DNA from: Woeseiaceae bacterium
Lineage (GTDB): Bacteria > Pseudomonadota > Gammaproteobacteria > Steroidobacterales > Woeseiaceae
Direction: 5' to 3'
NCBI GenBank assembly: GCA_021773075.1
Contig: JAJFKT010000026.1
Span: 184,356 to 248,355, forward strand
DNA: 64,000 nt
Under the pieces are notes generated by a model, which was not told where the DNA came from, ran no database searches, and saw nothing but the letters and a program-made list of their open reading frames with translations. Made by a program: the position numbers and the translations under genes. Shown here in pieces: positions 3,190 through 30,316 of the stretch (position 1 is the stretch's first letter; every line of letters starts with the position of its first letter).

Positions 3190-3864
3190 ATGGCGAAGTC
3201 GGAACTGAAAGGGTCTGCAACAAAGCAGCTCAAGAAAGCCGCGGCAAAATGCGACAAGGCTGGTGAAGTTGTGGATTTCTCTGATCAGAAGAAAAGGAAA
3301 AAGGCGAAAACCGAAGTGCAAACAGGATTTGGTACAACGCGTGGCCTTGAGTCAATGTTCCGCAATGCCTATCGCGCGCAGCTGGATATGATAACGCTGG
3401 CTGCGACGAAGGCCAATATCATGATTTCGGTGAATGGTTCGTTGCTGGCGCTGTTGACGCTGTCAAGCGCTTACGTCCTGACAAATGAGCCGCGCTTGCT
3501 GATCTCGGTTGCAATATTTCTGGCGAGCTGCGTTATTTCGATTTTCTTTGCAGTGATGGCAGCGCGACCGCAGAAAATCGCCAAGACGCCGACTGGTCTG
3601 GATGACTTCAGGGCCGACAGGGCTGACCTGCTGGTTTTTGAGCATTTCGCTAAGCTGTCAAGAGACGACTATATGACAGCGATGACGGAACTCATGCGGG
3701 ACAAAGAACGAATTTACAAAGCGATGGTTGGCCATTTGTACTTTCTTGGGCGCTCGGCGGATCGGCGATTCAGGTTGTTGCGTGTGTCTTACACCGCTTT
3801 CTTCGTCGGGCTCGTTATCAGTCTTGCTGCCTTTCTGGTCATGACATTCGCTCTAACTCAATGA
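3190..3864 (+). CDS. membrane protein, possibly DUF5706 / Pycsar-effector-like TM family (tentative)
   Basis: The ORF 2986..3864 overlaps ppk, so the ATG at 3190 (MAKSELKGS...) is the plausible start. It has a Lys-rich N-terminus followed by ATKANIMISVNGSLLALLTLSSAYVL. Further hydrophobic helices are LLISVAIFLASCVISIFFAVMAA and YTAFFVGLVISLAAFLVMTF. The family assignment is from memory of the family pattern only. Confidence 0.5.
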   Translation: MAKSELKGSATKQLKKAAAKCDKAGEVVDFSDQKKRKKAKTEVQTGFGTTRGLESMFRNAYRAQLDMITLAATKANIMISVNGSLLALLTLSSAYVLTNEPRLLISVAIFLASCVISIFFAVMAARPQKIAKTPTGLDDFRADRADLLVFEHFAKLSRDDYMTAMTELMRDKERIYKAMVGHLYFLGRSADRRFRLLRVSYTAFFVGLVISLAAFLVMTFALTQ

Positions 3865-9328: not shown

Positions 9329-9362
9329 TTGACGAATTACATAAATGGGGTATACTACCCCA
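9329..9362 (+). promoter_or_regulatory. sigma70-type promoter with embedded palindrome TGGGGTA-N3-TACCCCA (copy 1)
   Basis: -35 TTGACG (9329-9334), 16-nt spacer, -10 TATACT (9351-9356). The palindrome TGGGGTATACTACCCCA (9346-9362) spans the -10. The architecture is the same as at 12509 and 14582. Confidence 0.55.
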
Positions 9363-9389
9363 AATATAGTCAATAACAGTAAGAAGACC

Positions 9390-10826
9390 ATGAATTTCCG
9401 AGTTGCCAGGCCGATAAACCAAACTGAGAACGCCCAGGTCGGGCGCACTGCGTTATTGCTCGGCTCTTTCAAACCGCCTCACGGAGGTCATTTACAGATT
9501 GTTTCCAAGCTGTTTGAGTCCGGCGATGTCGAAGAAGTGGTCATCGTTATTTCAGCCGGTTCCAAACCGTTGCCAGGTTCAACGCACGCCATCGACTCTA
9601 CGGCGTCAGAATTGATGTGGCGGGCGATGCTAGGGAACGAGCGGCGTGTGAGGATTGAAAAGGCGGCCGGTACGGCCGCCGAGCATGCCTGCCAAACCAT
9701 GCAACAGGCACCGGTTGGCACACGCATCCTGGTGTGCCTCAGCGATGATCATTCCGAGGCCGTTGATAGTGCCGTACAAAGCTTGAATTTGAATTCCGGA
9801 ACAGCCAAAGCCGTATCCGCAGAGGTAGTACGCATGCCAGCGAATAATGATAGCTACGACACTCAGGAACAACGCAGATTCCTGGCCCGGGGCGAGCAGG
9901 GACGCAAACAGTATGTCTCTATGCAGACCGGCGGATTATCACGAATGGTACGCGAGCGTATGTGGCGAATTTGTCAATCAGAATTACGCGATATCCACTC
10001 AATAACCGCCAATCGACTGCAAGTCCTTACGCCGGAAATTATGGCGGCTATGGATGCCGAGTTCGCGCAGGCAACCAGCACCAGCCAGTGCCTGGAATTC
10101 GATGCGTGTACCGCTGACGGGAATTCTGTGCGAGTGAAATACACGGGTGATGAGAACGAAGACCTGCATTTTGAAAAACGGTCGCAGCCGTATCCGCGCG
10201 ATCGTCTCGCGTACGCCCACCGCTGTCTGCGTTTGCTGGAGTGCCACCACGGTAATGCGCAATGGTTTCCGCGCGTCCATTACTTCGAGAAAAAGCACGG
10301 AATACTTGCCGAGACTAACGCAGTCGCTGACGGCCAAACCCTGATGTCACAGTTTGTTGCCGGAAAATTTGACGACGAGATAGCAGTAAATCTGGGCAAG
10401 GTCGTTGCTGAATTGCATGCGACACCAATTGCTGAAAAGCCGATTCGTGGCTCCTTGAAACAAGAAAGAAGCTGGTGGGAGCGACGTCGAAGGTATTGGT
10501 GTGAGCGATTGGATATTCAAACGAATAAACGCGTAACTGACGGCGATACAAATCGTAGTGGGCGATGCCTGGTGCATCTCAACCTTGCCGCTGAGAATAT
10601 AATTGTCGGCAACGGCCAGGTTGCGCTGCGCGGATTTGAGTGTGCATCCAGCGTCGGCGATCCGGCACTCGATGTCTTGACGATTATTTCTAACTATGTA
10701 ACCAGCGGTGCGGCAACCGGTCAGCGACAGGTTGCGCAACAGGCTGCCGATTGTTTCGTCGACAGTTACGAGCGGCACGCTCTCAAGGGTTCTGAGGTCG
10801 TCCGGCGCGCCAGGGAGATGCTGTAA
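9390..10826 (+). CDS. two-domain protein: N-terminal cytidylyltransferase-like nucleotidyltransferase, C-terminal APH/choline-kinase-like domain with degenerate catalytic residues
   Basis: N-terminus GSFKPPHGGHLQIV is an (H/T)xGH nucleotidyltransferase motif. The C-terminus CLVHLNLAAENIIV...LRGFECASSVGDPALDV aligns to the HxDxxxxN and DFE motifs of the APH kinase fold, with both Asp replaced. The ATG at 9345 lies inside the predicted promoter, so ATG 9390 is preferred. Confidence 0.65.
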   Translation: MNFRVARPINQTENAQVGRTALLLGSFKPPHGGHLQIVSKLFESGDVEEVVIVISAGSKPLPGSTHAIDSTASELMWRAMLGNERRVRIEKAAGTAAEHACQTMQQAPVGTRILVCLSDDHSEAVDSAVQSLNLNSGTAKAVSAEVVRMPANNDSYDTQEQRRFLARGEQGRKQYVSMQTGGLSRMVRERMWRICQSELRDIHSITANRLQVLTPEIMAAMDAEFAQATSTSQCLEFDACTADGNSVRVKYTGDENEDLHFEKRSQPYPRDRLAYAHRCLRLLECHHGNAQWFPRVHYFEKKHGILAETNAVADGQTLMSQFVAGKFDDEIAVNLGKVVAELHATPIAEKPIRGSLKQERSWWERRRRYWCERLDIQTNKRVTDGDTNRSGRCLVHLNLAAENIIVGNGQVALRGFECASSVGDPALDVLTIISNYVTSGAATGQRQVAQQAADCFVDSYERHALKGSEVVRRAREML

Positions 10827-10835
10827 TCGGGTGAA

Positions 10836-12410
10836 TTACTGCCTGCTCGATATCGAGAAGTATCTACTCGGATGTCGATCGACGACGCTATCTTCGAAGC
10901 CGAGAACAGTCGGCTTCACCATGTGCTTGCTGACATAAAAATACAACGGCACGATTGGGTAGTCGCTGAGCAACATCGCTTCAGCATCATGTGCATGTCT
11001 CGCGGCCGATTCTGGATCGACTTGCCGGGCAGCCAGGTTGAGTTCCTTATCGTATTCAGCATTTTGATATTGCGGTAGGTTTTGGGGGCTGTCAGTGCGA
11101 AAAACATCCAGAAATGTGCTCGCGGCATTGTAATCGCCAGCCCACGCAAAGCGCATAATATCCCAATCCACGCGCCGATCACGCGACTGGAGAAAGTACT
11201 TCCATTCTCTTTTTTCGAGCTCTGTTTCAACACCAAGAACCTGGTTCCACATGCCAGTTACCGCCAGTGCCACTTGCTCATGAATGCCGTCGGTATCGTA
11301 TAAATAGGTGATTCTCAAAGCGTGTTCCGCTGAATAGCCAGCACGCGAATAGGCGTCCCGTGCGAGCTTTTCGCGGGCACCTTTTTCGAGGTTCATCCAG
11401 TCAAATGATGCAGCCTCATAGCCGTCCACGCCAGGCGGTACAATCCCGAACGCGGGGCTTTCTCCTCGTCCAATCAGACTAGCTAGTTGCTCTCGGTCCA
11501 CCGCCATCGTCAGTGCCTGGCGAAGGAGGTCGTTGTCAAACGGTGCTTCATGCAGGTCGAATGCGAGGTAATAAAGAGCGAGTGTCGGCGCGATGCGGGT
11601 TTCGGCCCCGTAGTCAGCGATAGCGGCCTTGACCATCTTCCCCGGAATTGTCATCGTGATATCCAAATCGCCCGCGCGATACATATTAAATTCAGCCATT
11701 TCATCGGCTATCGGCAAGTAGATCACTTCGTCGATGCGAACCGAATCGGCATCCCAGTAGCGCGAATTCTTCCTCAGGCGAAGCGCGCCACCCAACTGCT
11801 GATCGAAAAAAATGAACGCACCGTTGCTCACATGCGCCTTTCCTGACGCGTGTCGCGGGAACGCGATCGGCAGCGAAAGTACCGACAAAAAGTGACCCGC
11901 CGGCTTTGATAAGCGAATCTCAAGTTCACTTGCGGAGTGTGCAATAACGCCCAGTTCCGTTGCTGGCATTTCCCCATCGTTCACTGCCCGAAAATTTTGA
12001 ATAGGCTCGAGCAGACTGGCGTATGTTGACAACGTCTCGGGTACCGCATTACGTCGAAATGCCCGAACAAAGTCATCTGCGGTTACCGAATCACCATTGG
12101 ACCAGCGTGCATCCGCGCGCACTGCGAACGTGTATACGAGCCCATCCGCACTGATCTCCCAGGATTCGGCAACGCCAGGCAGCAATGAACCGTCAGCAGC
12201 CTCTGCCAAGAGCCCTTCATACATGTCGATCAATACATTGAAGGTATGGAGGTTCTCAGCAATACCCGGATCAAGCGTGCCTGGCTCGGCACTGTTTCCA
12301 CGACGAACACTCTGCCGTTTTTCGTCATCATCTCGGCCGCTTCCCGACCTGTCGCAGGAGACAGTCAGCACGATGAAGAAAGCGAGAACAAAAGTCAGGG
12401 TAAGACGCAT
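10836..12410 (-). CDS. ABC transporter substrate-binding protein, family 5 (peptide/oligopeptide/nickel type), lipoprotein
   Basis: Lipobox LTVSC. RGNSAEPGTLDPGIAENLHTFNVLIDMYEGLL and the overall length of about 520 aa are typical of SBP_bac_5. No permease or ATPase genes are adjacent. Confidence 0.85.
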   Translation of the reverse strand: MRLTLTFVLAFFIVLTVSCDRSGSGRDDDEKRQSVRRGNSAEPGTLDPGIAENLHTFNVLIDMYEGLLAEAADGSLLPGVAESWEISADGLVYTFAVRADARWSNGDSVTADDFVRAFRRNAVPETLSTYASLLEPIQNFRAVNDGEMPATELGVIAHSASELEIRLSKPAGHFLSVLSLPIAFPRHASGKAHVSNGAFIFFDQQLGGALRLRKNSRYWDADSVRIDEVIYLPIADEMAEFNMYRAGDLDITMTIPGKMVKAAIADYGAETRIAPTLALYYLAFDLHEAPFDNDLLRQALTMAVDREQLASLIGRGESPAFGIVPPGVDGYEAASFDWMNLEKGAREKLARDAYSRAGYSAEHALRITYLYDTDGIHEQVALAVTGMWNQVLGVETELEKREWKYFLQSRDRRVDWDIMRFAWAGDYNAASTFLDVFRTDSPQNLPQYQNAEYDKELNLAARQVDPESAARHAHDAEAMLLSDYPIVPLYFYVSKHMVKPTVLGFEDSVVDRHPSRYFSISSRQ

Positions 12411-12508
12411 CAGGCTAAACCTATGATTTAAAAAGAAAAACCATGATACATGGGTCAGAGGCGATTGAGAAATCCGGACAAGAAGCGGCTTCGGATGAAA
12501 TAAAGTAC

Positions 12509-12542
12509 TTGACGAAAGCTATTATTGGGGTAATATACCCCA
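12509..12542 (+). promoter_or_regulatory. sigma70-type promoter with embedded palindrome TGGGGTA-N3-TACCCCA (copy 2)
   Basis: -35 TTGACG (12509-12514), 16-nt spacer, -10 TAATAT (12531-12536), palindrome TGGGGTAATATACCCCA (12526-12542). Confidence 0.55.
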
Positions 12543-12638
12543 CTTATGAGCTATATCAATTTACATCTCGCGACTCCAATGACCTCTGCATCCGCCATGT
12601 ACGGCGATTTGCGAGGTTTCACGCAAAAGGAATTCGTC

Positions 12639-14084
12639 ATGAATAATCTGTGGAATTATCTGCTGGGCCTCGTTATCTGCTTTTCGATTTCAGCTTGTGG
12701 CGGAGGGGCCCAGACCACAACACAAGCACCGAGCGCTGCAAATCCTGTGCCTGGAATGGCATCCGGACCGATTTCAACCTTCGGCAGCATCGTCGTCAAC
12801 GGCGTTCGTTACAACACGGATTCTGCATCGTTTGAGGTCAATGACGCCCCGGGGACGCAGGCCGATCTAAGTGTTGGGCAGATCGTCACCGTGAAAGGGA
12901 TGATCGATGCCAATGGCACTACGGGCACCGCAAACGCAGTGACATTTGACGATACTGTCAAAGGTCCTGTTCAGAGCATCGATCTGGTCGGGCGACAATT
13001 CGTTGTTCTTGGACAGAATGTTCTGGTCGTGGCGGGAACGTCCTTTGATGACCGTTTCAGCCCCGCAACTATGGATGGCCTTAGCGTTGGTCAGATTGTG
13101 GAAGTGAGTGGCCAGTTTGATGCGAATAACGACATCGTCGCTACCCGTATTGAGCCCAAACCAGCAGGCACTCAATTCGAGGTCCACGGTACGGTCAGCA
13201 ATCTTGACAATACCAATATGCGTTTCAACATCAATAACCTCGTCGTTGACTACAGCGCGGCCCTGCTTGACAATTTTCCGGCCGGGCAAATTAGCAACGG
13301 CGATTTCGTTGAAGCCAAGGGCACCATGCTCGGCGCCGCCGGTGAACTACTGGCGACCAAAGTGGAGCTTGATGCGTTATTGCCGGGAGCCACGGGTGGT
13401 GACCGCATTGAGATCGAAGGTTTTATCACTCGCTTCGAGTCTGCACAGGATTTTGATGTCGCGGGGCAGAAGGTTACAAGCACCTCAAGCACGCGTTTTC
13501 TTGGTGGCAGCGCGTCCGACCTGGGACTGAATATCAAGGTTGAGGCCGAGGGCGATCTCGACAGCGATGGTGTTCTCGTTGCGACGAAAATAGATATTCG
13601 TCGAGCGAAGGCCGTGCGCGCAACCGCAAATGTGGATTCTGTCAACGCAGCTGACAAATCGCTGGTGGTCCTCGGTATTACCGTCAAAGTGGACGCACAA
13701 ACGCGCCTTGAAGACAAAACCGATGCGGACGTAACGCCACTAACCCTTTCCGATATCAGCGCCGGCGATTACATCGAAGTTCGCGGTAGCGAATTTCCTG
13801 CTGGCAGCGGGACCATTCTTGCGGCGCGCTTCGAACGCGAGGATCCGGACAACCGCGCGATCCTGCAGGGCTTTGTCGAAGCCATTAGTGAGCCATCATT
13901 CAATATTCTCGGCGTCAGCATCGAAACGAGCGGTGCTACAGTATTCCGCGAGGCTGACGGTACCGTCATTTCGTCGACCAATTTTTTCGGTCAACTAACA
14001 GAGAACTCGCTGGTCAAGGCGAAAGGAACGGAAGTCGCAAACTCAACAATATCTGCGACAGAAGTTGAATTCGAAATCGAATAA
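12639..14084 (+). CDS. DUF5666-like repeat lipoprotein (paralog A)
   Basis: The start at ATG 12639 has an AAGGA RBS and gives the lipoprotein signal MNNLWNYLLGLVICFSISAC-GGG. Repeated modules of the form G.IxxFGSIVVNGVRY...SVGQIVTVKG / VVLGQNVLV...GQIVEVSG. About 65% identical by eye to 15440..16903 over aligned blocks. Confidence 0.75.
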   Translation: MNNLWNYLLGLVICFSISACGGGAQTTTQAPSAANPVPGMASGPISTFGSIVVNGVRYNTDSASFEVNDAPGTQADLSVGQIVTVKGMIDANGTTGTANAVTFDDTVKGPVQSIDLVGRQFVVLGQNVLVVAGTSFDDRFSPATMDGLSVGQIVEVSGQFDANNDIVATRIEPKPAGTQFEVHGTVSNLDNTNMRFNINNLVVDYSAALLDNFPAGQISNGDFVEAKGTMLGAAGELLATKVELDALLPGATGGDRIEIEGFITRFESAQDFDVAGQKVTSTSSTRFLGGSASDLGLNIKVEAEGDLDSDGVLVATKIDIRRAKAVRATANVDSVNAADKSLVVLGITVKVDAQTRLEDKTDADVTPLTLSDISAGDYIEVRGSEFPAGSGTILAARFEREDPDNRAILQGFVEAISEPSFNILGVSIETSGATVFREADGTVISSTNFFGQLTENSLVKAKGTEVANSTISATEVEFEIE

Positions 14085-14103
14085 ATCAAAAGGACGAACA
14101 GAT

Positions 14104-14454
14104 ATGGAAACCAGGGAAATGATCGGAGAACGCAACAGCTCAGTTGCTGCCGAATTTGCAGAAATTGGCACCTCCTGCCGGCAGTTTCGTACACGGTTTG
14201 ATGTTGATATTCGAGAATTCATTATTCTTGCGACACTTTATGACTCCTGTTCGGCGAGTTCGCAGGCACTGTCCGAAGTGCTTGAGCTAAGCGCTTCGAC
14301 GGTGGACTACTGCTTATGCAAACTGGCAGAAAACGGACTGGCCATGGAATTGGACCGCAATACCTGCGAATTCTGCGCAACAACAGACGGCAGGAAACTG
14401 GTCCGCACAGCCTACCGGCAGTACGAGTCGGCAGCCATTGACATGGCTGCGTGA
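14104..14454 (+). CDS. small MarR-like winged-helix protein (paralog A)
   Basis: FDVDIREFIILATLYDSCSASSQALSEVLELSASTVDYCLCKLAENGLAMELDRNTCEFCATTDGRKLV matches the MarR wHTH pattern (xxxFxhL..L....s...La..l.ls.stv...l..L...Gl......D.R....T..G). At 116 aa it is shorter than typical MarR proteins. The ATG at 14104 is preferred over 14065, which overlaps the upstream gene. Confidence 0.6.
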   Translation: METREMIGERNSSVAAEFAEIGTSCRQFRTRFDVDIREFIILATLYDSCSASSQALSEVLELSASTVDYCLCKLAENGLAMELDRNTCEFCATTDGRKLVRTAYRQYESAAIDMAA

Positions 14455-14581
14455 AAGGATCCGACGTGGAAACAGCGTATGACAACACTATCCGTAACAA
14501 GAACTCCAGATTTGGTCAACAATGGCCGGAGTACACAGCATGACGCAAGAGGCTGCCACGACCGAAACACATCCAAATTCC

Positions 14582-14615
14582 TTGACAATGGATGCAATTG
14601 GGGTAAAATACCCCA
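14582..14615 (+). promoter_or_regulatory. sigma70-type promoter with embedded palindrome TGGGGTA-N3-TACCCCA (copy 3)
   Basis: -35 TTGACA (14582-14587), 16-nt spacer, -10 TAAAAT (14604-14609), palindrome TGGGGTAAAATACCCCA (14599-14615). The ATG of the next gene starts at 14616. Confidence 0.55.
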
Positions 14616-15443
14616 ATGACAGAACAGAGTATCAAGTTACTGCTGCAGAAAGCGTGCCAGGCGTTGCTACGTCCGATCGCCTCGGTGCTGCTAAAAACCG
14701 GCATGACGTGGAAAGAGTTTTCCGACATTTCGAAGACCGTATTCGTGTCAGTCGCTACCGACGAGTTCGGTATCCGCGGTCGGCCAACGAATGTCTCAAA
14801 AACATCAATCTTAACCGGTATTTCGCGAAAAGAGGTGAAACGCCAGCGCGACCTGATTCAAGAAGGTGGCGCGCTGATGCCAAACAAAACCACCGACGCT
14901 TCGCGTTTGCTAACGGCATGGTATCAGGATAGCGACTATGTCGATGAGCAGGGTGAACCGATGACTTTGACGCGACACGGTCCTGCCCCGAGTTTTCAGT
15001 CTTTGTTCGACACTTACGGCGGTGATACGCCCGAACAGACACTGATCAAGGAACTGAGCGGCGTCGGATCCATTGAGATTGACGACGATGGACAACTGCA
15101 TGCAAAGCGCCGCTATCACATGCCGGTGCAAACGGATATCGGCCACATTCAGGTCTTCTGCTCAATCCTGATCGACCATGCAAATACGCTGAGCAAAAAC
15201 CTTTACGGTGACGAGACCGAACGGTTGATCGAGGGCATGGCGATCAACCATTCGATCGATCCGGATGCGCTCGATGCGTTCCGAGAGTTTGCCGACCAGC
15301 GCGGCCAGTTGTTGCTTGAAGAAATTGACGAATGGTTGAGCGGTCATTGCATCGATGTGAACTCGACGGAAAAAACTCCTATAAGGCTAGGACTTGGTGT
15401 CTATGGCTTTGAAGACAAGAATTCAAAAGGAAGAACGAAATGA
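14616..15443 (+). CDS. hypothetical cytoplasmic protein (possible HTH-containing N-terminus)
   Basis: 275 aa with no signal peptide. The N-terminus MTEQSIKLLLQKACQALLRPIASVLLKTGMTWKEFSDISKTVFVSVATDEF looks helical and HTH-like. Its stop overlaps the start of the next gene (ATGA at 15440-15443). Confidence 0.55.
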   Translation: MTEQSIKLLLQKACQALLRPIASVLLKTGMTWKEFSDISKTVFVSVATDEFGIRGRPTNVSKTSILTGISRKEVKRQRDLIQEGGALMPNKTTDASRLLTAWYQDSDYVDEQGEPMTLTRHGPAPSFQSLFDTYGGDTPEQTLIKELSGVGSIEIDDDGQLHAKRRYHMPVQTDIGHIQVFCSILIDHANTLSKNLYGDETERLIEGMAINHSIDPDALDAFREFADQRGQLLLEEIDEWLSGHCIDVNSTEKTPIRLGLGVYGFEDKNSKGRTK

Positions 15444-16903
15444 AAAATATACTTGGCACGATAACCTTACTCTTGGCCTTTTCTTTGCTCCACGGTTGCG
15501 GCGGTGGTGGTGGGGGCAGCGGAACTCCGCCAGTGGTCCCGCCGCCGGTTGACGCAATCATCAGAACCGGAATTGCGGTTGGCCCAATCGACACGTTCGG
15601 AAGCGTTGTCGTAAATGGCGTTCGCTACGACACTGCCACAGCGACCTTCACGAGCGATGGCGCTGCCGCAAGCGAAAGTGATCTGAATGTCGGTGACGTT
15701 GTGACGGTCATGGGCACGATTGAAGATGACGGGCTAACTGGAACGGCAGAAACGGTAGCGACCGACGACACGGTAAAGGGCCCAATTGAGAGTATCGATC
15801 TGGCACTGAGTCAGATCGTGGTGCTTGGGCAAACCGTGCTGATTCGTCCGGAAACGTCTTTCGATGACACGCTTAGTCCTGCCTCGATTGATGGTCTGAG
15901 TGTCAGCATGATTGTCGAGGTGAGTGGACAAATCGACGCCAATGGCAATGTTCTCGCAACACGCATAGAGCCGAAGCCGGCCGGTACGCAATTCGAAGTT
16001 CACGGCACTGTTAGCGGCCACAATGCGACAACATTCGTTTTCTCCCTCAACAATCTGGTTGTTGACTACAGCGGTGCGACGCTGAACGATTTTCCGGGTA
16101 ATGCGATCGCAGACGGAGACTTCGTGGAAGCGAAAGGGGTGTCCCTGGGTGCTGCTGGCGAATTGATAGCAACCATCGTTGACCTCGAAGACAATGGCCT
16201 TAACGGTGCTGCTGACACGCATGTCGAAATCGAAGGCTTCATCACACGTTTCGTTTCGGCGACGGATTTTGATGTTACTGGCAATCCCGTTACGACGAAC
16301 GGCTCGACGACATTCGTCGGCGGCGTTGCGGCAGATCTGGGGCTGAACATCAAGGTGGAAGTCGAGGGTGCTCTCGATGCCGGTGGCCTGTTGGTCGCTG
16401 AAAAAGTGGATATTCGCCGTAGCAAGGCGGTGCGCGGTGTTGCGGTAGCCGATTCTGTCGATGCCGCAGCAGGATCGGTGGTTATGCTCGGAATCACGTT
16501 CACCACGGACGAATTGACTCGATTTGAGGACAAGAGCAGCGCCGATATTCGACCGTTGACGATTGGCGATATCAGCGCTGGTGATTACCTGGAAATTCGC
16601 GGCGCCGAGTTCCCGGCTGGAAGTGGCCAGATACTCGCAACCATTTTTGAACGTGAGGATTTGGATACACGGACGGAGCTGCAAGGATTCGTCGAAACAG
16701 TTGCGGATCCATCATTGACCATCCTCGGTGTCACGATTGATACCAATGGGTCGACGATATTCAGGGATATTGATGACAACGTGATTAGCGCCACAGACTT
16801 TTTTAGCCAGGTCGCGGCGAATTCTCTAGTAAAAGCAAGCGGATCAGAAACAGGAGATACATCCATACTCGCACAGGAAGTGGAATTCGAGCTGGAATTG
16901 TAG
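15440..16903 (+). CDS. DUF5666-like repeat lipoprotein (paralog B)
   Basis: Lipoprotein signal MKNILGTITLLLAFSLLHGC-GGGGGGSG. Same repeat organisation as 12639..14084, for example RIEPKPAGTQFEVHGTVS, NNLVVDYSGA and DGDFVEAKG, which are shared almost verbatim. Confidence 0.75.
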   Translation: MKNILGTITLLLAFSLLHGCGGGGGGSGTPPVVPPPVDAIIRTGIAVGPIDTFGSVVVNGVRYDTATATFTSDGAAASESDLNVGDVVTVMGTIEDDGLTGTAETVATDDTVKGPIESIDLALSQIVVLGQTVLIRPETSFDDTLSPASIDGLSVSMIVEVSGQIDANGNVLATRIEPKPAGTQFEVHGTVSGHNATTFVFSLNNLVVDYSGATLNDFPGNAIADGDFVEAKGVSLGAAGELIATIVDLEDNGLNGAADTHVEIEGFITRFVSATDFDVTGNPVTTNGSTTFVGGVAADLGLNIKVEVEGALDAGGLLVAEKVDIRRSKAVRGVAVADSVDAAAGSVVMLGITFTTDELTRFEDKSSADIRPLTIGDISAGDYLEIRGAEFPAGSGQILATIFEREDLDTRTELQGFVETVADPSLTILGVTIDTNGSTIFRDIDDNVISATDFFSQVAANSLVKASGSETGDTSILAQEVEFELEL

Positions 16904-17028
16904 ATCAGCTCAGGGACGAGCAAAAAGGAAGATTGGGCGCGGCCGGCGAAGAGCGACGCCAGGGAAGTGCCCGCCCAAATTTTCCATTGATAACAAAAAC
17001 AAGAACACGAATAGCAAGGAGCGAACGA

Positions 17029-18354
17029 ATGATGGGACGATTGATTAAGGTACTCATGATTGGCGTCTGCAGTAGTACAACGCTCGCAGCGGGCGGCGCG
17101 GATGCAGACCTGTTCGACAGTGCACAAATTGCCGCCGAAGAGGGTCGTCTTGCTGACATGCAGGAACTCTACGAGCGAATACTCGTCGACGACCCGAACA
17201 ATATTCGAGCGTTAAACGGTAAGGCCGCCGCTCAGGCATGGCAACGCGACTTCGACGGGGCACAGCTTACGTATTCCCGATCAATCGCTGTCGAGCCGCA
17301 AAATACGGATACATTAGTGGGCCTCGGTTACGCCTATGCGTGGGCCGGTGCGTACACCCAGGCCCACACTCAATTCCACCGCGCGCTGGCGATCGATCCA
17401 GGAAGTAGTGGCGCACGCAAGGGTATTGGATACAGTTATCACTGGGCAGGCGAACACGAGTTGGCACTCGGATCTTTCGAAACGGCGCAAAGTATCGCAC
17501 CGGACGATGCAGAAATTGCCGAGGCCATTGGCAGGGTGAAGTTGTCCTTAGGTCACTCACGTGATGCGGTCGCTGACTTTGACCGGGCACTGCAAATCGA
17601 CCCGACTCGACACAGTGCGAGCTTGGCGAGGCGCAGCGCACACCTGTCGGCACCAGCGCTCGAATTGACGACGCGCTTTGGTTCGACAAGCAATGCAGGC
17701 TCGGGTCTGCGGGCCGTCGAAGTCGCGCATTGGTCAGCGCCAACAACGCGATTCGCAGTGCGCTATGACAACAGCCTTGGCCTCGACAATTCGTCGATTA
17801 GTGATCGTGGTGAAGATGCGCGCGGCTACTTCGTCTCGGTGCAGCAGTATATTAACGACAGATGGATCGTTGGCGCCGAGGTTGGCCGACGCCAGCTTGA
17901 TGCTGGCGACGAGAGCATGCTCACTCTGCAAGGTTCCTACAACAGCGCCGTCGGCGTGTTTCGTCTCGGAACACAGATCGGCCGGCACGAAGCCGGCCAT
18001 ACTGACAAACTAGTGTTCGGTGGATTCAACTTTGCACTGGCGAATAATTGGCGTATCGAACCGACTGTCTATCTATCACAGACTGGAGTCGCTCGCGATA
18101 ACGAGTGGCGCAGTGTTGTCAACGCCGAGTATCAATCGCAATCGCTTTGGTCGGCGGGCGCGTTGTTAGGTGTTGGCCAGATCGACTCTGCTGATTCAAT
18201 TTTCGACGGTGATACCTCGATCGCCGGTTTGTGGGGCAGCTACCTGATCGCAGACCGATTCTCTCTGCGCCTTTCGGTGCGGCGCGAAAATACGCCTACT
18301 GCGGACTTTACCGTCGCCGAATTCGGATTCACGTACCGCCTGCCGGGCAACTAG
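17029..18354 (+). CDS. TPR-repeat protein with C-terminal outer-membrane beta-barrel (YaiO-like, tentative)
   Basis: ATG 17029 gives the signal peptide MMGRLIKVLMIGVCSSTTLAAGGADA. TPR-like repeats (YERILVDDPNNIRALNGKAAAQAWQRDFDGAQLTYSRSIAVEPQN...) are followed by about 230 aa of alternating beta-strand pattern. Confidence 0.65.
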   Translation: MMGRLIKVLMIGVCSSTTLAAGGADADLFDSAQIAAEEGRLADMQELYERILVDDPNNIRALNGKAAAQAWQRDFDGAQLTYSRSIAVEPQNTDTLVGLGYAYAWAGAYTQAHTQFHRALAIDPGSSGARKGIGYSYHWAGEHELALGSFETAQSIAPDDAEIAEAIGRVKLSLGHSRDAVADFDRALQIDPTRHSASLARRSAHLSAPALELTTRFGSTSNAGSGLRAVEVAHWSAPTTRFAVRYDNSLGLDNSSISDRGEDARGYFVSVQQYINDRWIVGAEVGRRQLDAGDESMLTLQGSYNSAVGVFRLGTQIGRHEAGHTDKLVFGGFNFALANNWRIEPTVYLSQTGVARDNEWRSVVNAEYQSQSLWSAGALLGVGQIDSADSIFDGDTSIAGLWGSYLIADRFSLRLSVRRENTPTADFTVAEFGFTYRLPGN

Positions 18355-18364
18355 GGGGTATACG

Positions 18365-20137
18365 ATGGAGCTGACATCTTCAAGTACGGTAAGTGTCGAG
18401 CAAGCAGCATCGCAAACGATCAATTTTCGCACTGTCGCAAACCGGTCACCAGCGATGTTCATATTCCTGTTCGCTATGTGGTTTGCCGCCCTGGCATGGT
18501 TCGGGCCACGGCTGCTGCAATCGATGGCTGCGGCACAGGGCCCGGTATCCGCATTCGCGCAGGCCTATTTCATAGTATTCGTGTGCATTGCCTGGCTCTA
18601 CGGATTGTATAACGTGTCAGTGGTGTCGTTTGCGACGTACACGAGAATCCGAAATCGGCTGACCGCAACCGATACGACCCCGCCCGAGAAATTAAATACG
18701 CCGATTGCCGTGCTGTACACGACGTGCAATGACTTCGTCGAAGCCGGCGCGATGTCGTGCGCCAAAATGGAATACGGAAACTTCAAACTCTACATACTTG
18801 ACGACAGCAGCGATGTCGGTTACCAGCGCAAGGTTGATCGTTTCGCAAGTCAATATGAGCATGTCGATGTCGTCCGCCGAAAAGATCGTTCCGGGTTCAA
18901 GGCGGGAAATCTGAATCACGCACTGGAAAGTGTCGTAACGGAGCCGTACTTCGTTATCGCAGATTCCGACGAGATCCTGCCGAGAGATTTCCTGTCCAAA
19001 TTGGTGCCGCGGATTGCCGCCGATCCAAGTTGTGGGTTTATCCAGGCCAATCACCAATGCATCAAGCAGGGGACGAAACTGCAGCGTGACATGTGCCGTG
19101 GGATCGATATTCACTGGGAATGGTATCAGCCTTTGAGGAACCGCTTCGGCTTCGTCATGTTCCTCGGTCACGGCGCGATACTGCGAAAACGTTGCTGGGA
19201 TGAAGCCGGCGGGTTTCCTGAGTTGGTCAGTGAAGATCTGGCGTACGCGATCGCGATTCGCGAACGCGGCTATTACGGGACCTTTGCCTCCGACGTTGTT
19301 TGCATGGAGGAGTTTCCGTCATCCGTTAGGGCTTTCCGCATTAGACACGTCAAGTGGACTCGAGGCACTTGCGAGTTCCTGCATCGGTTTACATCACGTT
19401 TGCTGCGCTCCAGGAACATCTCCTGGTCCGAGAAGTTGGATATTCTTTTTCCAACCGCGAATCTCCCGCTGACGTTGTTTTTTTTCGTCTTCATGATGAT
19501 GACGTCAATAGTGCTGCCACTGACGATTGGCGAGCGGGCGACTATGACGATAGAGATCGGATTGAGCTCGCTACAAATTCCAATCGTGCGCATGCCCGCT
19601 GAGATGAACGTCCTTTACACTTGGGACTTCTACTTAATGACGTTGGTGTCACTGGTGTCGCCGCTGCTGTGCTTTATGCTCGCCATGTGGCGCTCACCAC
19701 TAAAATTATTGCGATTTCTCGCGCATTCTACGTCGTTATATGCCGCGTTGGCACCATTGTCGACTATCTGCGTCATCGGTTATTTGAAAACGCGGGCCGC
19801 CCGATTTCTCGTTACCGGCGACAGTGCAGCAGGTGCCCAGGGCGAGAGTAACTACTGGGCGGAAACTCATCCCGACTCCGAGATTACGCAGCGCTTTGAG
19901 TGGGTTGCTGCCTGGGTATTTCTGATTGGCGCACTTGTCAGTTTTCAAATTGCCTTATTTGGTCTGGCGATTGGATACGCGTTACTGGCAATCATGCACA
20001 GCGCTGACTGGGGTCGGCCCGGACTGCAGACAATGACCTGGGTTCCTTTTACTTTTATTGCCAGTGGAATTGCTCTTGGTGGCATGAGCTTGTTCGGGAT
20101 GCAGCCGGTTTTTTTCGGCTACGGGTTTCATTTCTGA
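18365..20137 (+). CDS. membrane-embedded processive family-2 glycosyltransferase (polysaccharide synthase; OpgH / cellulose-synthase-like)
   Basis: N-terminal TM pair, then GT2 motifs: VLYTTCNDF, YILDDSSD, FKAGNLNHAL, IADSDEIL, VSEDLAYAIAIRERGY and a QxxRW-like RHVKWTRGTCEF. Multiple C-terminal TM helices follow. Confidence 0.8.
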   Translation: MELTSSSTVSVEQAASQTINFRTVANRSPAMFIFLFAMWFAALAWFGPRLLQSMAAAQGPVSAFAQAYFIVFVCIAWLYGLYNVSVVSFATYTRIRNRLTATDTTPPEKLNTPIAVLYTTCNDFVEAGAMSCAKMEYGNFKLYILDDSSDVGYQRKVDRFASQYEHVDVVRRKDRSGFKAGNLNHALESVVTEPYFVIADSDEILPRDFLSKLVPRIAADPSCGFIQANHQCIKQGTKLQRDMCRGIDIHWEWYQPLRNRFGFVMFLGHGAILRKRCWDEAGGFPELVSEDLAYAIAIRERGYYGTFASDVVCMEEFPSSVRAFRIRHVKWTRGTCEFLHRFTSRLLRSRNISWSEKLDILFPTANLPLTLFFFVFMMMTSIVLPLTIGERATMTIEIGLSSLQIPIVRMPAEMNVLYTWDFYLMTLVSLVSPLLCFMLAMWRSPLKLLRFLAHSTSLYAALAPLSTICVIGYLKTRAARFLVTGDSAAGAQGESNYWAETHPDSEITQRFEWVAAWVFLIGALVSFQIALFGLAIGYALLAIMHSADWGRPGLQTMTWVPFTFIASGIALGGMSLFGMQPVFFGYGFHF

Positions 20138-20162
20138 TCGGCAAGCGACGAGGAGTTCGAGA

Positions 20163-20489
20163 GTGTTTTCGCAGACCTCGAAAGATAGGGATAACAAAGA
20201 GCGGCTCGACGAAGTTGATAAGTATGTCGACACCGGTACGTCATGCCCGGAGCTGTGCGCGAAGTACGATGTTGACATTCGGGAGTTCGTGATTCTCGCG
20301 TGTATGAGTGAAACCGGTGAGTCGTGCGTCAATTACCTCAGCGCAGCAATTGGACTTAGCCCGACGACCGTAAGTGCGTGCATCGACAGACTGTTTGAGA
20401 ATGGCTTGATTCGATCGTCGGATGAGAATCCACCGCGTTACCTGCCAACAACCGACGGCATCGCAATGCTGCGTAAAGCAGGTGAATAA
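20163..20489 (+). CDS. small MarR-like winged-helix protein (paralog B)
   Basis: YDVDIREFVILACMSETGESCVNYLSAAIGLSPTTVSACIDRLFENGLIRSSDENPPRYLPTTDGIAMLRKA is colinear with 14104..14454. GTG start, 108 aa. Confidence 0.6.
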   Translation: MFSQTSKDRDNKERLDEVDKYVDTGTSCPELCAKYDVDIREFVILACMSETGESCVNYLSAAIGLSPTTVSACIDRLFENGLIRSSDENPPRYLPTTDGIAMLRKAGE

Positions 20490-23486: not shown

Positions 23487-26153
23487 TCATAAATACTGGG
23501 TTTCGGTAGCATCCAGAACAACACGAATTCGTTGCGCCAGCTGTGCGGAGGAATAGGGCTTCGGTAATAACGGAATCTTTTGCGCGCTTTCAATTTCTCT
23601 ATCGCTTTCTGGCTCCATCCCGGTAGTAAGCAATACCTTCATGTCCGGCCAGGTATTCATCGCAATATGCGCAAGCTCTCGACCATTGGTCTCACCGGGC
23701 ATGACAATGTCGGCAAACAGAAGGTCTATCTGCTGGTTCTGTTGCAGAATATCCATCGCCGCGGCTGCATCTTCGGCATAAAGAGTTTCATATCCGAGAC
23801 GATTCAGAGTACGGCAAGCGAACTGGCGTACCCTCTTATTGTCTTCCACAACGAGTATGATTTCCTCGCCCGTTGGGAGATCCTCATCTACGACTTCAAT
23901 TTCAAAATCTTCCGTTGTAGCCACACTTGGAAACGATAATTTGATGCAGGTGCCTTTGTCCGGGCCACTATCGATGTGAAGAATACCGCCGCACTGTTGA
24001 ACAAAATCACTGACCATCGTTAATCCAAGTCCGGTACCTGTCTCAACGGTCTTGGTTGTAAAGAATGGCTCAATGGCCCGGCGTCTGGTTTCGTCGTCCA
24101 TTCCGACGCCATCGTCTGTCACAGTCAGTACAATAAAATCGCCGGAACCTAGATCACCATCCCCTTCTGTTTTATTCACCATCTCCTGCAGGGTCGAGAT
24201 TATTATGTTCCCCCCATCTGGCATGGCGTCACGAGCGTTGGTGACCATATTGAGTACCGCGCTTTCCAGACGATTCTTATCAACAAGGATATTGTCGATG
24301 TCATTATCCAGTTCCATTCTTATACTGATCTCCGGAACCGATCGCTGTATGAGTCTCTCCATAGCTACAAGAATGTTGTTGATGTTCATAGAATGAACAT
24401 CAAGTTCCTGACGGCGAGAATAGGCCAGTAATCGCTTGATTAGGTCGGCCCCGTCCTGGGCTGCGGACAGCGCATCATCAAGCAGATCGTTATGATCCTG
24501 GTCTTCATAAACCACATCCAGCTTAAGAAACCGCAGGTTGCCTCGAATGACCGTCAAAAGATTATTGAAATCGTGAGAAATGCCGTCTGTCATGCGGCCA
24601 ATTGCCTCAAGTTTCATGGCCTGGGTCAGCATACTCTCCTTCTTGCGTGCATCCGTAATGTCTTCATTGATCGAGATGTAGCGGGCGATTTGACCTTCCT
24701 GATCTCGGACGGGGCAGATCGTGGAAGACAGCCAGAACGGGTCGCCGTTCTTTGTCCTGTTTTGAAATACCCCTCGCCAAATACCGCCTTTTGAAACAGT
24801 TCCCCAAAGTTCCTTGTAGTTTTCCTTCGAGGTCTGGCCGGAGCTCAAAAAACGGGGGTTCTCACCGATTACCTCATCCTCACGATAACCGGTGATATCG
24901 TAAAAACGGGGGTTAACGTATTCAATGTTTCCTGCAGCATTGGTAATCATTATCGATACCGGGCTTTGTTCAACGGCACTGGAGAGCTGTTGCAGCTCGG
25001 CGTTCATTTTTTCCTCACCGGACAGGTCACGCATGATGCCGGTAAATGAAACGTTCTGCCCTTCTTGCACCTTACTGACAGTGAGGTAAATCGGAACGAA
25101 ATCACCATCCTTACGCCGCGCCTGTACTCTTCGGCCGGTGCCAATGATCGTGGCAATATCTGTTCGCAAATATTCTCTTATATAGTCATCATGCGTTTCA
25201 GCGTCTGGCAAAGACATAAGCATTGATACGTTTTGGCCCAACACCTGATCGGCCGCATAAGCAAAAATTGACTCTGCGGCCAGATTGAATGTCTGGATGA
25301 TTCCCGCTTCATCTATTGTGACAATACCTTCACCCGCGTTATTCAAGATTGATTCCAGGCGTAATTCGCGATCCAGTATTTCTTCTTGTTTGCCAATCAA
25401 ACTCCGGTGCATTACCTCAAGGTCTTCCGTCAGACTCTTGAGTTCGGAAATGGTAGTGTTGACGCGGAATTCGATGGAATGATCGCCAGCGGCAATGCTT
25501 GTAGCCAAACCTCTCAGAGATGAAACAGGCCGGGTAAGAAACCGGCCAAAGAAAATCGCCAGCAATATGCTGAATACGATATAGCAACTCGCTATGAATG
25601 AACCATATTGGTACGCAGTATTAATTTGATCCTGCACTGCTAATTCGTCATAGCCTAATCTCAAAGTACCCAGCGATCTGCCATCCACATCACTGAACAA
25701 TTGCACCGCGATAAAATATATCTGGTCTGCATGCTGACCGAAATCAAAGTCTTCCCTAAAAACTATCGGTTCTTTAGTGCCGTTCGTTTCGGTGCCAATC
25801 GTCGTATCATTGTTGTTAATAAGCTCCGCGAAGATCACGTCACCGCTAAATTGTGTCTCGTAAAAAAATGAGGCCTGTTTCTGTGCGTCCTGATTCTCGG
25901 CCGCAGGCTTAAGTATTTCGGAATACAGCAGAGTATCGTTGCGTACCTGATCGATAAACTGGGATTCAAAACTGCGTTCGACGATAAGCAGGATACCGAA
26001 GAACAGCAGGGGAGTAAGCGGGATATGGATAATGAATACCCCAAGCATCATGCGGCCGGTAATGCTATGCCAGAACCGTTTTAGTTGTTCGAATCTGTCC
26101 ACAATATACCCAGCGATTTTAGTCCGGATTGACGCCCGAGTTGTTCGGACCAC
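23487..26153 (-). CDS. hybrid sensor histidine kinase / response regulator (periplasmic sensor, HAMP, 2 x PAS, HisKA, HATPase, REC)
   Basis: H-box region GRMTDGISHDFNNLLTVIRGN. N-box and G-boxes LNMVTNARDAMPDGG...DDGVGMD...GTGLGLTMV. C-terminal receiver ILVVEDNKRVRQF...DLLFADIVMPGETNG...LPKPY. The ORF start overlaps the upstream gene by 73 nt; the ATG at 26051 (MMLGVFIIH..., first TM) is an alternative start. Confidence 0.9.
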   Translation of the reverse strand: MVRTTRASIRTKIAGYIVDRFEQLKRFWHSITGRMMLGVFIIHIPLTPLLFFGILLIVERSFESQFIDQVRNDTLLYSEILKPAAENQDAQKQASFFYETQFSGDVIFAELINNNDTTIGTETNGTKEPIVFREDFDFGQHADQIYFIAVQLFSDVDGRSLGTLRLGYDELAVQDQINTAYQYGSFIASCYIVFSILLAIFFGRFLTRPVSSLRGLATSIAAGDHSIEFRVNTTISELKSLTEDLEVMHRSLIGKQEEILDRELRLESILNNAGEGIVTIDEAGIIQTFNLAAESIFAYAADQVLGQNVSMLMSLPDAETHDDYIREYLRTDIATIIGTGRRVQARRKDGDFVPIYLTVSKVQEGQNVSFTGIMRDLSGEEKMNAELQQLSSAVEQSPVSIMITNAAGNIEYVNPRFYDITGYREDEVIGENPRFLSSGQTSKENYKELWGTVSKGGIWRGVFQNRTKNGDPFWLSSTICPVRDQEGQIARYISINEDITDARKKESMLTQAMKLEAIGRMTDGISHDFNNLLTVIRGNLRFLKLDVVYEDQDHNDLLDDALSAAQDGADLIKRLLAYSRRQELDVHSMNINNILVAMERLIQRSVPEISIRMELDNDIDNILVDKNRLESAVLNMVTNARDAMPDGGNIIISTLQEMVNKTEGDGDLGSGDFIVLTVTDDGVGMDDETRRRAIEPFFTTKTVETGTGLGLTMVSDFVQQCGGILHIDSGPDKGTCIKLSFPSVATTEDFEIEVVDEDLPTGEEIILVVEDNKRVRQFACRTLNRLGYETLYAEDAAAAMDILQQNQQIDLLFADIVMPGETNGRELAHIAMNTWPDMKVLLTTGMEPESDREIESAQKIPLLPKPYSSAQLAQRIRVVLDATETQYL

Positions 26154-26563
26154 ATATAGGAAACAGATCCCGGGTTATCGAGCAATGCCTTAACCAGCGC
26201 ATCAATGTTTTCATATTCAGGTGGCCGCTGGTCCCCAAGCCGGAAAACACGTGAAAGTAATTGACGTTCATATTCACGTTTGGACATGAAAACAATCTGT
26301 TGCAGAAATACGTCTGTTGCGAATCGATCACTCGTATTCAGTAACGGCCTAAGTCGTACCTGAGCTTTAGTCATTGGTACACCCAGGAATAACTTTCGTA
26401 CCTCTGCATGGGCAAGTGGTTCTATCGTTAAATTGTTGCTACAGACCAGCAGCAAGCTGCGTTGCGTCGTCTCTGCGCTGCTGTTTGTGCAAACCAAACA
26501 CAGACACATCAACAAGACTTTGAGTTTCGCCGCTTTCCTCTGCATCAGAACATTGCATCCCAC
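26081..26563 (-). CDS. hypothetical exported protein, periplasmic-binding-protein-like (short)
   Basis: Signal peptide KLKVLLMCLCLVCTNSSAE. LLLVCSNNLTIEPLAHAEVRKLFLGVPMTKAQVRLRPLLN resembles the start of PstS-like type-2 binding folds. Co-oriented with the downstream kinase gene and abutting it. Confidence 0.5.
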   Translation of the reverse strand: MGCNVLMQRKAAKLKVLLMCLCLVCTNSSAETTQRSLLLVCSNNLTIEPLAHAEVRKLFLGVPMTKAQVRLRPLLNTSDRFATDVFLQQIVFMSKREYERQLLSRVFRLGDQRPPEYENIDALVKALLDNPGSVSYMWSEQLGRQSGLKSLGILWTDSNN

Positions 26564-27612
26564 TGCAGCATGATTTGGCCAAAATTGTCTCCTTGCGTAC
26601 GATTTCCGGAAATTTCGAGTTTAAAGGCATGTCGACCAAACGCATTCAAACGAACCCCACCAAGAAGCCTGTCAGTGATGTGACGCGGAAATAGCGCTAG
26701 ATAGGCGTCATCCTCTTCGCCAAAGGTCCATTCACCGCGGCCGAAAATTGTCCATCGATCGTCCAGGTTGTATTCCGTTTGAAGATAGCCGCTAAAAAAA
26801 TTATCTGTTAGCGTCCCCGCCAACTGTTGCAGGCGATTATCGACGTAGAATGTTGAACCTACCAATCGCCACGGGTGGGATTCCCAGTTCCCATACGCTC
26901 CTGCGTTAATTTGGCGAATTTTTTCAATTTCCTGGTTGGTGGCAGGGATTTCAGTGTAATTGACAAACAGGCCGTATCGCGTCGGACTGTATATTACCGG
27001 TTCAAGATAAAGGTTCAGCGCGAGGCTGAGGTCCTGCGAACCCGATGCCGGCTCCAAAACATCCAGCGGTTCCAGTTTGTCGGCCATTTCAGGTCCAGTG
27101 GCCACTGCCAGCGCATAACCCAACCCCTTCTTGTCGTATTCCTTGATGCCTTCAACGAGTAGTCCCGTTAAATGCATAGGCAGGATTCCGTCGTCGTCTT
27201 CGAAGTCAACAATTGATGGCCGACTGATACTGGTTTCCAAATAGGAGCCATGATGAAACTGAGTATTCCAGTAACCTACAGGGTTATGAAACCGTCCGAA
27301 CCAGACCTTGCCATCGCCAATCGTCCAACCCAATTGAATTCGCTCAATATCCTGTTCATCTTTACTGAGTAGCAATTCACCGAGAAAAAGTAGTTTTCCG
27401 TACTCGGCCGTGGCAAATACACCTACACCATAGTTGTAATCATCATCATCGAGTAACGAGTCAGTTGCCAGATTGGTACGATAAACCGTGCCTATGTGAG
27501 GGAATAGCAGGTAATCGAAAGTAGATTCACTGTGACTGGGCGGCGAATAAATCGCTATTGCAATAACAATCAGGACATAGATCAATCCGCCTCTATTATC
27601 GTTACAGTTCAC
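26545..27612 (-). CDS. putative outer-membrane beta-barrel protein
   Basis: N-terminal signal or anchor LIYVLIVIAIAIYSPPSHSE. Alternating hydrophobic pattern, Gly/aromatic-rich, C-terminal ...IMLQWDAMF (terminal Phe). No named family recognised. Confidence 0.5.
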   Translation of the reverse strand: MNCNDNRGGLIYVLIVIAIAIYSPPSHSESTFDYLLFPHIGTVYRTNLATDSLLDDDDYNYGVGVFATAEYGKLLFLGELLLSKDEQDIERIQLGWTIGDGKVWFGRFHNPVGYWNTQFHHGSYLETSISRPSIVDFEDDDGILPMHLTGLLVEGIKEYDKKGLGYALAVATGPEMADKLEPLDVLEPASGSQDLSLALNLYLEPVIYSPTRYGLFVNYTEIPATNQEIEKIRQINAGAYGNWESHPWRLVGSTFYVDNRLQQLAGTLTDNFFSGYLQTEYNLDDRWTIFGRGEWTFGEEDDAYLALFPRHITDRLLGGVRLNAFGRHAFKLEISGNRTQGDNFGQIMLQWDAMF

Positions 27613-27790
27613 CTAGCTATGCTCCCTCGATTAAGCGTCGTTATGTGCTGACCTGCCTCATCCGTGGATGTGACGGGCTAGCGAATGTGGACTAATTATA
27701 CTATGTTGATCGGGAGACAGCGTTTCAGTAGATTTACCTAGTCTTGGCCCAGGGTTTCGTTCGACCCGATCACACCTTAAGAATTAAAGA

Positions 27791-28519: not shown

Positions 28520-28593
28520 TCGTATTGGATGGGTCCGGTGCCCAGCGCTGTGCGGCTTGAGTGCAGCGCAGTCGTACTAATATCTGCACGAAT

Positions 28594-29097: not shown

Positions 29098-29100
29098 CCC

Positions 29101-30310: not shown

Positions 30311-30316
30311 TCCGAA

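Follow-up and report, generated by a model that had tools for sequence, protein, structure and literature searches.

The DNA considered here is a 64,000-nucleotide stretch from a Woeseiaceae bacterium (GenBank assembly GCA_021773075.1, contig JAJFKT010000026.1, positions 184,356 to 248,355), referred to below as the window, and our subject is a 17-bp palindrome, TGGGGTANNNTACCCCA (TGGGGTA-N3-TACCCCA), that surrounds the -10 element of three of its promoters, including that of a gene of the DUF6502 family. The palindrome has exactly three exact matches in these 64 kb, at 9346-9362, 12526-12542 and 14599-14615, and none in 100 dinucleotide-preserving shuffles. When three mismatches were tolerated one extra match appeared, at 54305, which is at chance level, and a position weight matrix (PWM) made from the orthologous sites described below again found only the three palindromes. 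A first-pass annotation of the same DNA had reported three copies with promoter elements and no further full copies in the window, and both statements stand. It had also listed a half-site at 18356 (GGGGTATAC, 18354-18367), which is instead the TAG stop codon of a TPR gene together with the GGGGG Shine-Dalgarno sequence of a glycosyltransferase gene whose ATG is at 18365.

Each palindrome is the right-hand part of a compact cassette on the plus strand, with CTTGAC located 12 nt upstream of it in all three. Cassette 1 (9329..9362) has its -35, TTGACG, at 9329-9334, its -10, TATACT, at 9351-9356 and its operator, TGGGGTATACTACCCCA, at 9346-9362; with transcription expected to begin near 9363, the ATG at 9390 would be preceded by a leader of about 27 nt. 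Cassette 2 (12509..12542) has TTGACG at 12509-12514, TAATAT at 12531-12536 and the operator TGGGGTAATATACCCCA at 12526-12542; with a predicted start at about 12543 and an ATG at 12546, it retains a CCCA-N3-ATG layout. Cassette 3 (14582..14615), that of DUF6502, has TTGACA at 14582-14587, TAAAAT at 14604-14609 and the operator TGGGGTAAAATACCCCA at 14599-14615, and its predicted start, 14616, coincides with the first base of the ATG of DUF6502, so that a leaderless mRNA is predicted. In a consensus promoter scan the three scored 10/12 (TTGACG-16-TATACT), 9/12 (TTGACG-16-TAATAT) and 11/12 (TTGACA-16-TAAAAT) and ranked among the best promoter-like matches between 9000 and 15000. All three thus have a TTGACA-like -35 and a TATAAT-like -10 spaced within the 16-18 nt of sigma-70-type promoters and lie upstream of a gene, with the TTGAC(G/A) and 16-nt spacer given by the first-pass annotation and a -10 of the form TAnnnT. 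The downstream genes are also as it described them: a nucleotidyltransferase/kinase-like gene, a DUF5666 lipoprotein (A), and DUF6502 at the head of an operon with a second DUF5666 lipoprotein (B).

Is this arrangement peculiar to the window? We fetched 80 genome loci around DUF6502 orthologues, covering about 10 kb on each side of the gene and together 1.2 Mb, with upstream DNA readable in 78. The homologues come from metagenome-assembled genomes of Woeseiaceae, Steroidobacteraceae and Chromatiales. In 63 of the 78 loci the sequence TGGG-N9-CCCA is present no more than 90 nt upstream of DUF6502, with TTGAC before the palindrome at a fixed distance. DUF6502, directly downstream of the operator, is present in every genome locus, and DUF5666 follows it in every locus for which downstream DNA was available. 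A PWM scan of the 1.2 Mb found essentially one site per locus (about one per 20 kb), always on the coding strand and at the head of the DUF6502-DUF5666 operon, or in four loci (L033, L040, L055, L065) at the head of a DUF5666-DUF6502-DUF5666 operon instead. Additionally, a gene-blind scan of metagenome contigs with the exact pattern TTGAC-N12-TGGGGTA-N3-TACCCCA returned 37 places, 31 of which have DUF6502 immediately downstream; three more are cut by the contig end and open with DUF6502-like codons (read by eye), one is a fusion (L116) and two are unrelated. The conservation of the sequence and its linkage to DUF6502 are direct observations. The first-pass annotation had named a dispersed repeat as the outcome that would undo its reading; given the one-per-locus placement, the constant orientation and the result of the gene-blind scan, we conclude from these comparisons that the element is the signature of one promoter and not a dispersed repeat.

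The fusion deserves description in its own right. At L116:436-3560 (minus strand of the stored locus) the cassette, at 3523-3556, and about 18 N-terminal codons of DUF6502 (MGSNIKTTLRNACQTLLR) are fused to an unrelated exported protein of 1027 residues, in which Ig-like segments recur and cysteine-rich motifs of the CxxC(H) type are present; the cassette appears to have been taken over to serve a different gene.

Alignment of the orthologous sites showed which parts of the element are held constant. The first-pass annotation had described perfect 7-bp arms, and this is correct for the window; across the orthologues only the outer TGGG and CCCA, at fixed spacing, are conserved. At the three inner arm positions, mismatches occur in about 45% of cases across 54 unique orthologous sites, and only seven of these sites have all three inner pairs intact, whereas the outer tetranucleotides are retained at constant spacing. 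It is TGGG-N9-CCCA, and not the 7-bp arms, that forms the conserved core. The -10 hexamer occupies palindrome positions 6-11, and in some lineages it has moved by one base inside the same frame, e.g., TGGGTATAATTTACCCA; the -35 is kept as TTGACN in 59 of 97 orthologous sites. The conservation extends beyond the 17 bp, as an analysis of positions -7 to -1 and +18 to +24 relative to the palindrome in 69 unique sites revealed: left of the operator, the promoter spacer carries a conserved CCATAAT, the mirror of ATTATGG on the right, giving a consensus dyad of about 31 bp, CCATAAT-TGGGGTA-N3-TACCCCA-ATTATGG, with the start codon within its right arm. The seventh flank pair shows modest covariation, being complementary in a fraction of 0.70 of sites versus 0.51 +/- 0.05 with shuffled pairings.

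The position of the start codon is similarly constrained. In 78 of 97 operator-gene pairs it lies 3 nt past the palindrome and in six more 0-1 nt past it, so that in these 84 the ATG is 0-3 nt from the palindrome and 7-10 nt beyond the last base of the -10. Since transcription usually starts 7 nt after the hexamer, the first base past the palindrome, which is A in 72 of the 97, is the predicted start, and with the ATG so close the DUF6502 mRNA is predicted to be leaderless (leader of 0-3 nt). There is no upstream in-frame start for DUF6502 in the window, and the Pfam DUF6502 model begins at residue 10. Where the leader is longer (at least 22 nt, in Chromatiales-like lineages), it is the promoter, not the ATG, that the palindrome accompanies. 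Leaderless, autoregulated repressor genes whose promoter overlaps their own operator are familiar from lambda cI (PRM) and tetR of Tn1721. As in these, the predicted DUF6502 transcript would start at or beside the start codon and its promoter overlaps the operator; the DUF6502 arrangement differs in the fold of the protein and the sequence of the operator, and in being chromosomal and spread over at least three gammaproteobacterial families, with the leaderless state predicted from spacing only.

Could such an element work with no protein at all, either through a hairpin in RNA or DNA (a 5' stem-loop acting on translation or stability, for instance) or as a promoter-intrinsic feature, with G-rich sequence upstream of the -10 and a C-rich discriminator? 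The 17-mers of the window would, if transcribed, fold to 7-bp hairpins of about -10 to -12 kcal/mol, the orthologue consensus dyad does reach the start codon, and a C-rich discriminator alone could tune open-complex stability. However, the conserved -35 and -10 put the transcript start just past the palindrome, and therefore the hairpin would not be in the RNA, and the upstream gene is divergent in many loci, which excludes read-through there. The frequent mismatches in the inner stem and the palindrome's attachment to the promoter where leaders are long also speak against a hairpin, as do the lack of any Rfam match between 8800 and 21000 of the window and of a plus-strand T-tract (terminator) after the palindrome at the three window sites. 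Taken together, the fixed outer contacts, the tolerant centre and the conserved spacer-side flank argue for two protein half-sites, and we regard an element that acts without a protein as very improbable. A terminator was considered separately and rejected: a minus-strand terminator-like match at site 1 consists of the palindrome plus a T-rich spacer, and sites 2 and 3 have none.

The layout that the first-pass annotation had associated with a dimeric repressor, a dyad operator over the -10 of a sigma-70-type promoter, is thus supported by its conservation across orthologues. Which protein would occupy it? The annotation had proposed two MarR-like genes as the source of the cognate regulators. 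These encode small winged-helix proteins that are paralogues of each other: protein A (14104..14454, plus strand) lies behind lipoprotein A, with which it is probably co-transcribed, and protein B (20163-20489, plus strand) lies at the end of the DUF6502 operon. Dimers of one or of both might occupy the palindrome and thereby repress all three promoters. Winged-helix matches are found in both, protein B exceeds the Pfam cut-offs for MarR (27.7 bits against 24.6) and HTH_24, and the location of both genes inside cassette-driven operons would permit autoregulation; moreover, a dyad operator over a core promoter with a small winged-helix regulator in the regulated operon, as seen in the window, is what MarR-family systems look like. 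On the other hand, protein A falls below the MarR cut-off (18.9 bits), the proteins are 108 and 116 aa long, shorter than the typical MarR protein (a dimer of about 140-150 aa subunits), and the operator is conserved across families with no winged-helix gene nearby. A profile hidden Markov model built from these proteins detected homologues in only two of the 117 operator-bearing loci (L043 and L046), in both cases behind the glycosyltransferase gene. We consider this synteny decisive: the protein that is co-conserved with the operator is DUF6502, which itself has no significant match to MarR in Pfam, and because the winged-helix genes are not co-conserved with it we think it quite unlikely that they encode its regulator.

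DUF6502 (14616..15443, plus strand) has, moreover, sequence features that would suit a DNA-binding protein. A helix-turn-helix (HTH) is present at about residues 60-82 (NVSKTSILTGISRKEVKRQR), and alignments show an invariant HTH-like segment, ...TN.SR.SILTG.SRKEVKRQR..., that includes TG..R.E..R, with R/K at position 62, an invariant E73, and K75 and R76 almost so. The operator is missing from five loci, all of the Lentisalinibacter clade (L073, L075, L076, L077, L079), and these are exactly the loci in which the HTH is altered (SRTSILTGLTRREVKRQR); this clade carries other palindromes about 60-130 nt upstream of DUF6502. Two dyads are conserved there, GGATACTGTGC-N9-GCAGTGTATCC and a CG-rich one around TTATGT, the latter having 10-bp perfect arms in L075; CGCTCGCGCG-N9-CGCGCGAGCG is the palindrome given for L075. 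The arm differences between L073 and L075 are symmetric. Similarly, a divergent DUF6502 paralogue in L034 (SRVAMLTGLSRRESARVR) is preceded by TATGTGC-N9-GCACATA. This covariation of HTH and operator, read from few independent events, goes in the direction predicted if DUF6502 binds the operator.

Our literature search turned up nothing on DUF6502 itself and DUF5666 only in passing. A profile search of PDB with DUF6502 gave no sequence link to HetR; the protein was also modelled. A first AlphaFold2 model, built from a 20-sequence alignment of close sequences, reached a predicted local distance difference test (pLDDT) score of 58 and had no significant PDB match, although HetR stood second in the Foldseek listing. 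With more diverse homologues, the (monomer) model reached a pLDDT of 86 and a predicted template modelling score of 0.75. It has four N-terminal helices, the last two at residues 60-67 and 71-82, followed by a middle part of helices and strands and then a C-terminal part of long helices. The top six Foldseek matches of this model in PDB are all HetR chains, the best being 4j00_A (E 6.7e-4, probability 1.00, template modelling (TM) score 0.50, about 300 columns, full length), and every non-HetR fold has an E of at least 0.06.

HetR is the master regulator of heterocyst differentiation, an intertwined dimer described as having a novel fold, with a DNA-binding domain (residues 1-98), a flap (99-216) and a hood (217-299); its target is a 17-bp palindrome, GAGGGGTCTAACCCCTC, in which GGG-N5-CCC is required, it binds the sequence gcgaggggtctaacccctcat of the hetP promoter as well as its own promoter, and its DNA contacts are made by Arg62, Glu71, Lys73, Arg74 and Lys76 (PMC4649674; PMC4192349). 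The protein has been treated as specific to cyanobacteria, with a novel fold (PMC4649674; bioRxiv 10.1101/2023.12.23.573081), and our literature search found nothing on HetR-like proteins outside that phylum. The parallels with DUF6502 are nonetheless several. Like HetR of filamentous cyanobacteria (hetP, hetZ and hetR promoters; PDB 4YRV, 4IZZ, 4J00), DUF6502 is a protein of about 275-300 residues with an N-terminal HTH at about 60-85. Both targets are 17-bp dyads of a G-tract and a C-tract, that proposed for DUF6502 being G4-N7-C4 with the core TGGG-N9-CCCA, and the promoter of each protein's own gene contains a site. Both recognition helices combine Glu with Lys/Arg (R/K62 and E73-x-K75-R76 in DUF6502), a correspondence matched by position only. 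The hosts, in contrast, differ, being cyanobacteria for HetR and Gammaproteobacteria without heterocysts for DUF6502, and the genes that would be regulated here encode lipoproteins and a glycan-synthase-like module.

Some loci have tandem operators, with starts 20 bp apart in L055 (6832-6868) and L065 (8071-8107) and 39 bp apart in L049 (1996-2051). These hint that binding may be cooperative or of higher order; tetramers of HetR have been reported on longer DNA.

Combining these observations, we propose that DUF6502 is a HetR-fold autorepressor that occludes its own -10. The promoter, TTGACN-16-TAnnnT, would be a strong sigma-70-type promoter whose -10 sits in the variable centre of the dyad operator, and the operator would be contacted at TGGG and CCCA, 9 bp apart, by a dimeric HTH transcription factor with DNA-binding, flap-like and hood-like parts. 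The dimeric state is implied by the dyad symmetry of the operator and the repression by its overlap with the -10: a DUF6502 dimer covering positions from about -16 to +1, or as much as about 31 bp, would block RNA polymerase, resulting in negative autoregulation of the DUF6502 operon until a signal releases the protein. While the predicted fold was obtained directly, we infer DNA binding by DUF6502, the direction of regulation and the transcription starts from sequence and model. Of the mechanisms considered we judge this the best supported, with the balance of evidence tipped modestly in its favor.

Several observations weigh against this proposal, the first group of which concerns the likeness to HetR. 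It derives from one predicted monomer and Foldseek alone, with a TM of 0.5 and a root-mean-square deviation of about 8 A, and DUF6502 has no sequence homology to HetR that we could detect: hhalign of DUF6502 against HetR, and against a diverse HetR alignment, gave a probability of 0.3; neither HetR family in Pfam (PF03574 Peptidase_S48, PF18460 HetR_C) was matched at E<=10 by any of 83 family members or by the window DUF6502 protein and its three segments; and an exhaustive phmmer search with HetR of 1.84 billion representatives produced 53 clusters, none of them DUF6502-like. A separate search for HetR homologues retrieved only relatives at least 86% identical. Because the sequence methods see no relationship, we do not claim membership of the HetR family; what the model suggests is a HetR-like fold and a HetR-like reading of DNA. 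Also, the half-site spacing differs (G4-N7-C4 here, 2 bp longer than the G4-N5-C4 of HetR), and HetR is chiefly an activator that uses upstream sites, whereas the site here overlaps the -10 and repression is proposed.

The remaining objections concern the assignment of the operator to DUF6502. The covariation of HTH and operator comes down to one or two phylogenetic events. A rival reading is an unlinked regulator that binds TGGG-N9-CCCA, with DUF6502 merely one of its regulated products; the roughly 10 kb examined on each side of the loci leaves room for such a regulator encoded elsewhere. Additionally, operator and HTH are partly uncoupled in L118:1-6695, which carries the closest relative found of the window DUF6502 (69% identity) in a tandem duplication. 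There, a solute-binding gene (minus strand) comes first, then a canonical operator ahead of a DUF6502 paralogue whose HTH is degenerate (STDSVVAAVTGLSPEEF) and of DUF5666, and after these a half-degenerate operator (TGGAATAAACTGCCCCA), a DUF6502 with canonical HTH and DUF5666; the canonical operator thus precedes the degenerate paralogue and the canonical copy has the half-degenerate operator, so that the linkage is not one-to-one. A global regulator, however, would be expected to have sites elsewhere too, and both the 1.2 Mb and the gene-blind scan place the motif almost exclusively at the DUF6502/DUF5666 promoter. DUF6502 also has a conserved HTH and a transcription-factor-like predicted fold, and the operator changes where that HTH changes. 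On these grounds we consider an unlinked regulator unlikely.

Could the resemblance to HetR reflect common descent? In such a reading, which goes beyond the autorepressor proposed above and which we offer as tentative and rather doubtful, DUF6502 and HetR would truly be related, if very distantly, and DUF6502 would be the first transcription factor of the HetR superfamily to come from outside the cyanobacteria, with a G-tract/C-tract dyad read by the same Glu/Lys/Arg helix chemistry and with autoregulation from a leaderless promoter. HetR would then not be an invention of the cyanobacteria but a descendant of an older family of autorepressors of small operons. A bolder step by analogy, and a lead only, is that DUF6502 might be controlled by a peptide, as HetR is by PatS. 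RGSGR-type peptides (PatS/PatX/HetN) inhibit HetR via the hood domain, and the lead arises because HetR is switched off by a small peptide while DUF6502 has a conserved neighbor resembling an oligopeptide-binding protein; no PatS/PatX-type peptide gene was seen, and none was searched for. This neighbor, an orphan OppA-like family-5 solute-binding protein gene, adjoins the operator-DUF6502 unit in most of the genome loci (L001-L080) and is often divergent from it.

In the window the OppA-like gene (10836..12410, minus strand) is divergent from cassette 2, and by synteny with L118 we take site 2 to be the probable ancestral head-of-locus promoter. The ancestral unit would have been operator, DUF6502 and DUF5666 lipoprotein, in that order, which was then duplicated and rearranged in this genome. 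The operator at site 2 would now control lipoprotein A (12639..14084, plus strand; six DUF5666 repeats and a lipobox signal peptide) and winged-helix protein A. Between cassette and lipoprotein there is a 31-codon, putatively leaderless reading frame (12546..12638, plus strand), in frame with lipoprotein A, which starts MSYINLHL as compared with MNSYTHSEL in DUF6502 copy 1 of L118. It is possibly what remains of a DUF6502 paralogue since deleted, a suggestion made with low confidence because the alignment of the remnant alone to L118 copy 1 was not above that of shuffles. We also noted a minus-strand promoter-like site, TTGATA-16-TATATT (12559..12532), that shares the AT-rich operator centre of site 2 and faces the solute-binding gene, and the operator at this site might control both directions in the window. 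A shared divergent promoter as a conserved feature was rejected, because the would-be -35 in the orthologues is 19 nt away (hand calculation); it is plausible at site 2 only.

Site 1 appears to be an extra copy of the cassette. Its flank, CCCCAAATATAG, is similar to those of orthologous DUF6502 promoters, e.g., CCCCAAATATGG in L008, which suggests a copied cassette with a decayed ATG. The L116 fusion would be a further instance of such recruitment at another locus. It would control the gene at 9390..10826 (plus strand), whose Pfam matches are weak: an N-terminal CTP_transf_like match below the cut-off and an APH-like C-terminal part. No homologue of this gene adjoins the operator in any of the 117 loci, and the gene is probably a lineage-specific addition to the regulon, driven by cassette 1. 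Behind DUF6502, the downstream operon (15440..20489, plus strand) comprises lipoprotein B (15440-16903), a TPR protein (16933-18354) weakly similar to the TPR regions of PgaA/BcsC, a membrane GT2 synthase-like glycosyltransferase of 590 residues (18365-20137) weakly similar to cellulose synthase, MdoH and PgaC, and winged-helix protein B. The TPR and glycosyltransferase genes (16933-20137) form a synthase-like pair that would have been appended to the DUF6502 operon under the same operator; the pair follows DUF6502 in only five genome loci, the lineages listed being L002, L005, L043, L046, L048 and L098. Farther along the window, the G+C content of 24001-34000 is 0.47-0.50 versus 0.51-0.56 in the flanks, and this segment may be foreign.

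Our analysis would assign a testable function to two uncharacterised families that are common in marine-sediment Gammaproteobacteria such as the Woeseiaceae, DUF6502 as a candidate regulator and DUF5666 as a candidate regulated lipoprotein. The promoter-operator itself, compact, deeply conserved and with a predicted leaderless transcript, is of a kind seldom found in Gammaproteobacteria and well suited to genetic work. If the HetR-like fold should prove to be real homology, DUF6502 would be the first outgroup for HetR, and the origin of both the heterocyst master regulator and its recognition of G/C-tracts would become experimentally approachable.

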